4,237 bases of DNA, from the IMG/VR virus record IMGVR_UViG_2531839675_000021; one strand, written 5' to 3'. The number at the start of each line of letters is the position of its first letter. Position 1 is the first letter of the stretch. The position numbers were made by a program. This DNA is from a virus. Taxonomy: Duplodnaviria > Heunggongvirae > Uroviricota > Caudoviricetes. Positions 1 through 3,000 of the stretch are shown here, piece by piece.

Positions 1-3000
1 TCAAATGACCAGTTTTTTCCATTCCTTACCGCGTGCGTCGTTGTAAATATCGGTCATTTTTTGATTCGAATGGCCTAGCAAAATTTTGGTATCAACCCCC
101 TGCTCTCTGAACAATCGCTCTGATAAAGATCTCTGCTCATGGAAAGAGGGAGGGGTGCCATTAGCACGCCAGTTGTAATCCACAGAATCCCGGGCTTTTT
201 TAAATGCAACGGTTAATGTTGCTGGCTTAACCATCCCGCCGCGCTTAGCTGTCCCTTTCGCGTGATGGTGGTGCAATAGCCACGGACTAAGAACGCAATC
301 GCGGCAGGATGACACCACATCATCCAGGGTGAGATTTAATTTATCGCAACGCAGAGCCAGAGGGATGGCAATCCGGGTTCCTGTTTTTTGCTGTTCGACA
401 TGAAGATAACCATCCCGGATATCCGAAAATTGCATTTTGCAAATATCTGAAAGGCGCTGGCCTGTCATCAGTGCCAGCAGCATACCGCGCTGTAAAAAGT
501 AACCATCCTTTTCCGCTGCGTTATAAATCATCATCCACTCATCAAAAGTCAGTCGCTGTCTTGATATCCGCACCTGCGGTTTTTTTGCCGATTCTGCAGG
601 GTTAAAGCCTGGCGGGACATCGCCCGTTTGCTGAGCTTCCCGGAAAACATCGATCAGTACTTTCCTGAAAATTTGTCCCATTCTGTTATGTCCTCTGGCC
701 TTGTACTCTTCCAGTACTGATACCACATCTTTTACGGTTATGGCATCTAACGGTCTGGTGCCAAAACGTTCATCAAATACCCTGAGAGGGGCCGCTTTCT
801 GTTTCAGCGTGTTGAGTTTGATCTCGCCGTTTTCATATCTTTCCTGTTGAATTTTTCTGTAATTATTCAGAAAAATGGTAACGGTTGATGAACCGCCGGT
901 ATCACTAATAATTTTCTCCTGCAGACTGAGCATTTGTTCCATTTGCTGCCGGGCAAGACGGCTGTTCGCTTCTGCTGCAATAGTTTCTGCCAGTTTCTGG
1001 TCAATACTGCCGAGACCGTGATTTTTGCCTGTTATGGGATGCCTGTAACGCCAGTAAACTTTGTTATTTCTTTTGTCAAAATACGGAGATAATCCCGGAA
1101 CATCGGTTTTATATTTTCGCGGGCGCGCCATCTTCCAGTATCCTCTTCAAAGCAGGGTGATCTGTGGCGATCACCTCCGGCTTGTTTACCATTCCGACAA
1201 AGCGAGCTTGCGGATCCACTCGCCAGCGTCTTCCAACTTTTTTGGGGAGAGGAAATATCATTCCGGCTTTAGCGTATTTACTTAACGTACTCGGAGTTGG
1301 GACCGGTTCACTGAATTCCTCTTTTGCCCACTCAGTGAGCAGAATAAGTCTTGCCATGAGCGTCGTTCGCTAATCATGGTCGCCGCCACTATAGCTGGTG
1401 GGCAACGACCGGGGTTGAACATTAAAAATCAGCCTGATTCGGGATCAGTTTTTGCCAGATAACTGAAACGTATTTTGCCTGGTAACGGGCGTCATCAAGT
1501 GCATTATGGCGCTCACCTTCGAATGGAATAGCCGTTCTGGCATCGAAGTCTATGGCTTTCCCCAGCTCAACGATTGTGCGTACATCGCGATCGTTGTAGT
1601 AACGCCACGGGCAGGGGATCCCCTGCCGTTCGTATGAACGGCGCAAAATCGTGTTGTCGAAGTTGGCTCCATTTCCCCAGACCTGAACAAAAAATTCACC
1701 GGAGTTTTCGTCGATAAATTCCCGCAATTGTAACAGTGCATCATCTAACGGGATTTCATCGGTCATAATGGCAGATTGCGCTTCGCGTGATTGCTTAAGC
1801 CACCATTTAATGGTGTCCCTCGCCGTGTGCTTTCGTGTTGTGTGCCTGCTTTTTACCACGTCAGGCGAGGTGGTCCCCGTTATTCCCCAACAACAAGGAT
1901 CTTGTTAATCTGGATATCCCCAACAACAATAAGAGTATTGAATGTGATCGCTGAATTAACGGCAGCAATGACGGCTATTCGTGAAACCGCCCAGATTGCA
2001 AAACTAATGAACGAGGCAAAAACTCAAGCTGAAGTAAATGCGGCTATTGGTGAACTGAACTCAAAGCTTGCATCTATTCAGCGCGAATGCGTGTCTCTCG
2101 TTGAGCTGGTGGGCACTTATCAAGAAATAAATGCTTCTCTCAAAGCTAAAATTGCAGAATTTGAAAACTTTGAGGCTCAGACGGAAGGTTATATCCTTAG
2201 CCAACTTGAGTCGGGAACTTTTGTGTACTCGAAGGAGGTAACCGTGAACGGCGGCAGCATAATCATGCATCTTTGTCCAAAATGTTTTGGACAAAAGATA
2301 GTATCGATACTTCAGCCATTCCCGGTTAGAGAATATGAATTTTTTCATAAAAGCAGGTGCCTGTACTGTGAAAATCAGTTTCTTATGAATAAAAATCCGG
2401 ATTACGTATCACCTCCATCTATTGAAGAGTTGGCCAGAAAACTGAACGGCAATCTGTAGATTTTTACTGTTATGGATATCCAGATTGTTAAAGAGCATGC
2501 CGGATGCTTGCTTGTGTCCGGCGCGTGTGCACCACTCTCCCCCCGTGGAGGATTCCTTAATTACCAGATTTCATTAGTCAGAGTTTCTTGCTAACCAGCG
2601 ACGCGCGCCAGATTCGGTTTTAAACGTTTTGCTTTTGGTATACGTCATCGCGGTGAACGTGCCGTCCTGGTTGGGAAACACGCCGCACACCAGAGATTCG
2701 TTGTTGCCAAGATCAAGAGTATCCATGCTGACCTCATATCCCCTTAACGCCGGGGTAGCGGAACAAAAACCTGCTGCATAGTTAAAGTTGAACCCTGCCG
2801 TCATGTTCTTACGCCTCGGGCTGGCTACTTAATCCCTGACCACTGCCGGGTAACTCTAGGTATTGCCCTGTATTGTGTGGGACGGGATGGGTTGGTATGG
2901 GAAAACTATAGGAAATGCCTAATTGCTTGTCAATAGGCTACGCCTAATGATTTGGGTGCGACCTAATAGGTGATGGTTTGTGGGAGAGGTAGTAGGAGTT

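Follow-up and report, generated by a model that had tools for sequence, protein, structure and literature searches.

Rip1, a single protein encoded by prophages, has no toxicity by itself (PMC13434031, PMC13601566, PMC12908700). It was first described by Patel et al. 2026 (Nature 651:1060, as cited in PMC13434031). In those three reports, homologues are described as widespread in proteobacterial prophages, and the Rip1 complex is described as forming pores that release dye from liposomes, with the cell being killed before phage maturation. The cryo-electron microscopy structure is given as an 11-mer ring of the small terminase encircled by 12 copies of Rip1 (PMC13434031, PMC12908700). According to PMC13434031, an amphipathic helix forms the N-terminus of Rip1 and the ring is contacted by the C-terminal half, phages that escape carry mutations in the portal (Pseudomonas phages) or in the small terminase (E. 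coli phages), protection against phage is reported, and the characterised Rip1 proteins from E. coli and Pseudomonas phages have one common mechanism. The present analysis concerns a plus-strand gene in a stretch of 4237 nucleotides (nt) from IMG/VR virus record IMGVR_UViG_2531839675_000021 (Caudoviricetes), the whole of which is referred to below as the window. The product of this gene, WP_000559928.1, is annotated 'hypothetical protein' by the Prokaryotic Genome Annotation Pipeline (PGAP). It is proposed here, with a probability of roughly 0.7, that the gene (hereafter the Rip1-like gene) encodes a one-protein antiphage defence of the Rip1 type, and that it serves as a lysogenic-conversion gene in a Rac-like prophage, where it occupies the sieB slot.

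Relationship of the encoded protein to Rip1

By sequence and by fold, the protein belongs to the Rip1 antiphage pore family. A phmmer search of the PDB returned a single significant match, the Rip1 entry 9oox (E=3.6e-7), over residues 14-150 and with both CxxC pairs aligned. The title of that entry identifies it as HK446 Rip1 ('ring interacting pore 1') in complex with the T6 small terminase. When a profile of 36 homologues was compared with the same entry, an E value of 4.7e-24 was obtained, the alignment joining profile positions 6-152 to residues 16-160 of the 164 in the chain. An AlphaFold2 model built on the 36-homologue alignment had a mean predicted local distance difference test score of 91.5, and its top Foldseek matches in the PDB were 9oox_M and 9oox_L (E=2.8e-7, probability 1.00, template modelling score 0.72 when normalised to the target 9oox_M). 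The runner-up after the 9oox chains had an E value of 0.11, and none other fell below 0.1. The profile and structure searches suggested in a preliminary description of this DNA have been run, and they point to Rip1.

Identity to the known proteins is 27% for HK446 gp37 (BLASTP E=5e-13), 32% for HK620 hkaP (E=2e-21) and 30% for gp30 of Pseudomonas phage JBD30. Homology to Rip1 is full-length (171 versus 164 amino acids (aa) for HK446 gp37), the folds are superposable, N-terminal helices are followed in both by a C-terminal Cys4 beta domain with two CxxC pairs, and each is a single, stand-alone prophage gene on the strand opposite its neighbours. At 27-30% identity to Rip1, however, the protein described here falls in a distinct subfamily of the Enterobacterales, matching phrog_1244 in PHROGs (E=1e-57), a group labelled 'unknown function'. 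The gene also has a leader of its own and a bracketing inverted repeat, neither of which is present at the HK446, HK620 and JBD30 loci.

The helical N-terminus and the CPKC-x24-CLYC arrangement that had been read from the sequence are both borne out. In the model, residues 3-23 and 28-79 are helical; the four cysteines are C111, C114, C139 and C142. These are invariant in 36 of 36 homologues and align with C121, C124, C148 and C151 of HK446 Rip1; over the family the spacing is CxxC-x21..25-CxxC. The N-terminal half is moderately amphipathic (maximum hydrophobic moment 0.44), and no transmembrane segment is predicted, the maximum 19-residue Kyte-Doolittle mean being 1.13 where the usual cut-off is ~1.6. 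Homology with Rip1 suggests that the N-terminal helices are the pore-forming part and that the C-terminal Cys4 domain is the ring-binding sensor.

The plus-strand open reading frame (ORF) is a genuine conserved gene, and more than a chance reading frame. From the GTG at 1944 it encodes 171 aa, and all of the enterobacterial homologues begin M/V-IAEL. The 163 aa originally ascribed to it correspond to a start at an internal ATG (1968) and must be extended, since the GTG is backed by PGAP and by the homologue alignment. Homologues number 109 at E<=1e-3, and at the same threshold the family profile matches 3337 cluster representatives (50% identity), nearly all of them 145-180 aa long. The ratio of non-synonymous to synonymous substitution rates (dN/dS) between pairs of homologues is 0.11-0.31, and the protein is therefore under purifying selection. 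Across O157 genomes the gene is 100% conserved, despite the decayed prophage around it.

The two halves of the protein do not evolve at the same rate in close pairs; between the Citrobacter and MS10495 homologues, dN is 0.141 for the C-terminal half versus 0.011 for the N-terminal half. A fast-evolving C-terminal half fits a sensor domain that follows phage targets. In close homologue pairs, the rate at which non-synonymous changes accumulate in codons 81-171 (2184-2456) was ~10 times that of the N-terminal half, and in the homologue alignment N-terminal and C-terminal types have been recombined in differing combinations. With regard to base composition, G and C make up 41.9% of the ORF, versus 48.2% for the exonuclease remnant, 55.8% for the spacer at 2497-2573 and 50.2% for the DUF1391 ORF. 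The AT-richness relative to its flanks that had been attributed to the gene thus holds against these three, but not against racR and the ydaS-like gene, which at 42.6-42.9% are as AT-rich as the Rip1-like ORF.

Two other identities were rejected. The preliminary description had mentioned the DksA/TraR proteins, in which the cysteine spacing is about x17, and had rightly withheld membership. There is next to no likelihood that the protein is a coiled coil with a C4 zinc finger of this type, binding the secondary channel of RNA polymerase. A long helical N-terminus followed by four cysteines is the extent of the likeness, which is superficial; no match to PF01258 was obtained even at E<=1, no DksA/TraR fold occurs among the 50 best Foldseek matches, and the Cys pairs lie in a beta-rich domain with x24 spacing, versus a CxxC-x17-CxxC finger after a coiled coil. 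Taken together, these results effectively refute the assignment. Homology to SieB was likewise rejected. No match to PF14163 was found, under conditions in which Rac SieB, the positive control, scored 109 bits (E=1.5e-31), and the protein has no transmembrane segment, whereas SieB is an integral membrane protein.

The assignment of this protein bears on the annotation of several model phages. Genes of HK620 (hkaP, L003 3998-4492), HK629/HK630, DMS3, JBD30 (gp30, L004 3001-3495) and MP38, long annotated as 'hypothetical' or 'putative superinfection exclusion', were found to be members of the Rip1 family by tblastn and BLASTP. In the case of hkaP, an opposite-strand gene between cIII and N like the gene considered here in its orientation, the label 'putative superinfection exclusion protein' (2001) was a positional annotation and the protein was never characterised. 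The earlier statement that no annotated phage function could be recognised is out of date, Rip1 having been described in 2026. No literature on WP_000559928, hkaP or phrog_1244 was found. Both the defence family and the type of slot are known ones, and the gene adds an uncharacterised member to the family and is not a new system; its candidacy as a defence gene, put forward in the preliminary description, is very probably correct through its membership of the Rip1 family.

The sieB slot and the deletion beside it

The 713-nt stretch from 1861 to 2573, in which the gene lies, is 100% identical in many chromosomes of E. coli O157:H7. In strain TR01 (O157:H7) the window corresponds to the left end of a prophage adjoining potC, for which PGAP gives the order int, xis, exonuclease pseudogene, plus-strand hypothetical gene, DUF1391, racR, ydaS-like gene, ydaT and replication genes, with several further pseudogenes annotated in the prophage. 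Because of this gene order and the multiple pseudogenes, the source of the window is identified as a decayed Rac-like lambdoid prophage at potC of E. coli O157:H7. The ORF list and PGAP agree that int through racR are all on the minus strand, so the claim of a lone plus-strand gene among minus-strand neighbours was accurate. Coordinates are collected in Table 1.

Table 1. Features of the window, with the basis on which each was placed
Feature	Position	Strand	Basis or remarks
int	1-1131	-	ORF list; PGAP on identical O157:H7 locus
xis	1109-1357	-	ORF list; PGAP on identical O157:H7 locus
Exonuclease remnant ORF	1422-1859	-	ORF list; PGAP on identical O157:H7 locus
Exonuclease 3' remnant (pseudogene of 823-aa 3'-5' exonuclease)	1422-1819	-	Pfam Rv2179c-like, E=1.2e-46, C-terminal part of profile only
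Deletion junction	1819/1820		~2.95 kb missing versus UC4315 (L010 4053-7000); homology classes and junction alignment
Conserved leader 5' of Rip1-like gene, ~100 nt	1838-1943	+	Alignments; also stands before unrelated cargo genes of other prophages
Two exact 13-nt direct repeats, TCCCCAACAACAA	1884-1896, 1917-1929	+	33 nt apart
Inverted repeat, 5' arm	1907-1932	+	Core AATCTGGATATCC at 1907-1919; in all loci of this Rip1-like subfamily
Shine-Dalgarno-like AAGAG	1931-1935	+	8 nt 5' of GTG; read from sequence, kept in Rip1-like cassettes
Rip1-like gene, WP_000559928.1	1944-2459	+	GTG start, TAG stop 2457-2459; ORF list, PGAP
N-terminal helical half, residues 3-79	1950-2180	+	Helices in AlphaFold model
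C-terminal beta-rich domain, two CxxC pairs, residues 84-150	2193-2393	+	Strands in AlphaFold model
Cys codons C111, C114, C139, C142	2274-2276, 2283-2285, 2358-2360, 2367-2369	+	171-aa numbering
Inverted repeat, 3' arm	2461-2486	+	Core GGATATCCAGATT at 2474-2486; right after stop codon
GC-rich hairpin without T tract	2499-2522	+	-19.4 kcal/mol, z=-1.7; just past cassette
DUF1391 ORF (ydaF-like), convergent with Rip1-like gene	2574-2804 (longest ORF, 76 aa); 2574-2726 (PGAP, 50 aa)	-	ORF list, Pfam, PGAP
pL-like early-left promoter, TTGACA-17-TATAGT	2905-2933	-	RacR operator-like repeats over it
racR	3042-3518	-	ORF list; PGAP on identical O157:H7 locus

The Rip1-like gene occupies the lambdoid sieB slot, on the opposite strand and adjoining the immunity region. 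In Rac proper, sieB lies on the plus strand and abuts the DUF1391 gene ydaF, which is the same position. The likeness to SieB of lambda and Rac thus consists of position and orientation, as an opposite-strand gene in the early-left operon by the immunity region, and is one of positional equivalence alone; protection of the lysogen against superinfecting phage would be a further likeness, if the Rip1-like protein acts as proposed. In HK446 and HK620, Rip1 and hkaP respectively are found between cIII/ral and N and are oriented against the early-left operon. A Citrobacter homologue lies between xis and a cI-type repressor, an Edwardsiella homologue between recombination genes and N, and the JBD30 homologue is an opposite-strand gene between the terminase subunit genes, a position also described for Pseudomonas Rip1 in PMC13434031. 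The int-proximal hotspot in which the gene had been placed is, on comparison with HK446, HK620 and Rac, the sieB slot of the early-left operon, which is immunity-proximal. Its int-proximal appearance is due to a deletion.

This deletion is apparent from comparison with UC4315, which carries an intact version of the prophage at the same potC site. The order in UC4315 is int, xis (identical protein), exonuclease (823 aa), DUF1482, dicB, 529 base pairs (bp) of intergenic DNA, Rip1-like gene and DUF1391. In the window, homology to the full-length exonuclease gene stops at 1819 and homology to the UC4315 region 5' of the Rip1-like gene starts at 1820. The sequences lost comprise ~2.07 kb from the 5' part of the exonuclease gene (about 690 codons), DUF1482, dicB and ~400 bp of intergenic DNA, and in the junction alignment the join itself shows similarity over a few bases. 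The PGAP note on the exonuclease reads 'missing N-terminus', full-length genes being present in relatives. The preliminary description had observed that the exonuclease gene has lost its 5' end beside the Rip1-like gene, which is correct, and had read this as the mark of an inserted gene, which is not. Given the intact order in UC4315, the window carries a ~2.95-kb deletion and not an insertion scar, and insertion as the cause of the truncation is ruled out; it was the later deletion that joined the Rip1-like gene to the exonuclease gene. The junction is common to 267 complete genomes, mostly O157.

The gene was found in 682 of 5426 complete E. coli genomes (about one in eight). UPEC69, which has the same xis, a near-identical int, a full-length exonuclease gene and dicB, carries a 64-aa ORF in the slot. 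The cassette (~1838-2496) is also present in unrelated temperate phages of the yfd/e14 type, at 93-94% identity and, for example in PhiR49_1, next to cI. The gene is thus variably present, in agreement with the initial suggestion of an accessory gene.

Several further observations were made on the surroundings of the gene. The Pfam DUF1391 domain covers residues 28-75 alone of the 76-aa ORF, and the '76-aa gene' named in the preliminary description may therefore be over-extended. Five copies of an operator-like palindrome of ~20 nt (TTAGGC-N4-GCCTAA type), with a spacing of 25-26 nt, are situated on either side of racR (2902-2946 and 3541-3611), and these are presumably RacR operators. Two overlap the pL-like promoter (2933-2905, minus strand, 11/12 match) and three overlap a pR-like promoter (3586-3615, plus strand, 10/12 match). 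A transcript from the pL-like promoter would cross the Rip1-like gene in the antisense direction. An exact 13-nt direct repeat, GGGTTGGTATGGG, occurs at 2889-2901, downstream of the pL-like promoter, and at 3278-3290, inside racR, and may be due to chance. Outside the window, an Edwardsiella prophage has a gene with a GmrSD_N domain (L015 8105-9157), a domain typical of type IV restriction. This gene is situated a few kb from the Rip1-like gene of that prophage, in the interval from N to the repressor gene; this stretch may hold more than one defence gene.

A conserved leader, a bracketing repeat and exchangeable cargo

The DNA immediately 5' of the Rip1-like gene (1838-1929) is far better conserved than its coding sequence. 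The leader is near-identical to that of Citrobacter, while dS for the gene is about 2. It was detected, at a coverage of >=80%, in 1375 genomes of E. coli, which is about twice the count for the Rip1-like gene, and in 16 species of Enterobacterales. The first copy of TCCCCAACAACAA was present with every type of cargo, the second in the Rip1-like cassettes and in those of the ECs1072 type.

The cassette is bracketed by an inverted repeat. In the loci carrying the leader and repeat (L002, L010, L011, L016-L020 and L022-L042), to which 1838-1932 and 2461-2496 of the window correspond, the outer 7 nt of the arms are invariant (AATCTGG/CCAGATT). The inner arms vary and yet stay complementary, being ATATCC/GGATAT in most loci, ATGACT/AGTCAT in UM146 and T...A in XH990. 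When the transcript from arm to arm was folded, a terminal helix of 18-26 bp with a pairing probability of ~1.0 was predicted for six of six cassettes. Among 13 distinct arm pairs, 94.5% of the cells of the comparison are paired, a value that none of 500 shuffles reached and for which slid controls gave 28-45%. Four pairs have changed on both sides, but these double changes derive mainly from two sequences, and the covariation of the arms is therefore suggestive only.

At least three cargo types unrelated to the Rip1-like gene, which makes at least four types in all, were found, each within the bracketing repeat. One is an ECs1072-family phage-associated protein (144 aa) accompanied by a small convergent ORF of 68 aa, in XH990 and Shigella (XH990 L017 3106-3718, L023, L041). 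Another, in UM146, is a signal-peptide protein with a weak match to LprI. The third is a protein of ~151-159 aa (MTRDDLEFD...) with two hydrophobic segments, found in Atlantibacter, Sodalis, Pseudescherichia and Rahnella (L028 3025-3480, L033, L036, L039), and this is a candidate superinfection-exclusion or defence protein. None of these other cargos matched a Pfam family above cutoff or a PADLOC model. No empty-slot allele, with the leader fused straight to the right flank, was seen among the sampled matches.

It was considered whether the repeat might flank an invertible DNA switch; this was rejected, as a chimeric query for the flipped junction was recovered from 0 of 5426 genomes at >=80% coverage. 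No match to Rfam was obtained anywhere in the window at E<=1, and the leader folded by itself is unremarkable (z=-0.13). Long-range 5'-3' helices are known from the tac/fbi fold-back of hok mRNA and from the RNase III stems that flank 16S and 23S rRNA. The present repeats resemble them, by analogy only, in being placed directly before and after the cargo, in the helix predicted and in the complementarity that is kept; they differ in that transcription of both arms is here assumed and in having no Rfam family. It is possible, though somewhat doubtful, that there is a conserved expression module for which the Rip1-like gene is one exchangeable cargo among several, and that the repeat acts in it as a functional long-range 5'-3' RNA helix by which the mRNA of defence genes expressed by the lysogen is processed, stabilised or gated. 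The repeat may equally act at the level of DNA, as a boundary for module exchange, as at that of RNA, in processing, stability or translation control. No description of such a leader and bracketing repeat with exchangeable cargo could be found.

Signals for expression of the gene were sought as well. A sigma-70 consensus scan 5' of the Rip1-like gene gave no match, and the best candidates on manual inspection had 6-8 of 12 promoter matches and were not conserved; the promoter is presumed to lie within the 1838-1943 leader, and the gene is probably expressed in the lysogen. No canonical intrinsic terminator was called after the gene in the window. At the position of the 2499-2522 hairpin, the yfd-type phages have a canonical terminator, AAGCGTCCTGTAGGGCGCTTTTTT.

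Proposed function and its alternatives

If the Rip1-like protein acts as Rip1 is described to act, the lysogen would make a soluble, harmless monomer. On late gene expression by a superinfecting phage, the ring-shaped small terminase or portal oligomer would be bound by the C-terminal Cys4 beta domain, and about a dozen copies would assemble round the ring. The inner membrane would next be breached by a pore built from the N-terminal amphipathic helices, and death of the cell would precede the maturation of progeny (abortive infection). The identity of the trigger, the formation of the pore and the protection conferred are, for this protein, suggested by homology.

A number of results weigh against this proposal. 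The protein is no more than 27-32% identical to those Rip1 proteins that have been characterised, so that function, and especially trigger specificity, may differ. Neither Pfam, NCBIfam nor PADLOC 2023 has a family for the protein, and as the last two are without a model there is no independent annotation. In addition, the deletion removed everything beyond 124 bp 5' of the start codon, and no sigma-70 promoter was recognised in what was retained. The first of these points would also be expected if the Rip1 fold had been put to another use, such as superinfection exclusion or regulation, in which a host or phage oligomer would be bound but no pore would arise, or defence set off by something other than terminase or portal. 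The size and diversity of the family, with its 3337 cluster representatives, the strong variability of the C-terminal half between subfamilies and the fact that the superinfection-exclusion label of hkaP rests on position alone would all accommodate such a change. This alternative is nevertheless considered unlikely, as the end-to-end alignment takes in the Cys4 domain as well as the helical half, the protein matches characterised Rip1 in length, architecture and prophage setting, and a common mechanism is described, in PMC13434031, for members from E. coli and Pseudomonas phages.

The points concerning the promoter would be explained if the gene were an intact but silent passenger, its promoter having been taken by the deletion and its persistence in O157 being due to recency. 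The several pseudogenes in the prophage, and the essentially clonal nature of the O157 copies, with 267 genomes having the same junction, are in keeping with this. The ~100-nt leader that is conserved in every other context starts at ~1838, however, and is fully retained; if the promoter lies in this shared module, it therefore survived the deletion. Nor does the ORF carry a disabling mutation in hundreds of genomes. A silent passenger is accordingly regarded as quite improbable, and a Rip1-type defence remains the preferred reading.

The results provide a proposed function for a 'hypothetical protein' of those 682 E. coli genomes, which include essentially the whole of the sampled O157:H7 lineage. 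The leader and bracketing repeat offer a cheap genomic handle on further prophage defence genes and may indicate a post-transcriptional control element; if the module reading is true, new defence genes could be predicted from the slot. If active, the Rip1-like protein adds an enterobacterial subfamily for mapping the terminase and portal rings that Rip1 recognises, and it would shape which phages grow on O157, with a bearing on biocontrol, on therapy and on the spread of Shiga toxin (Stx) phages.

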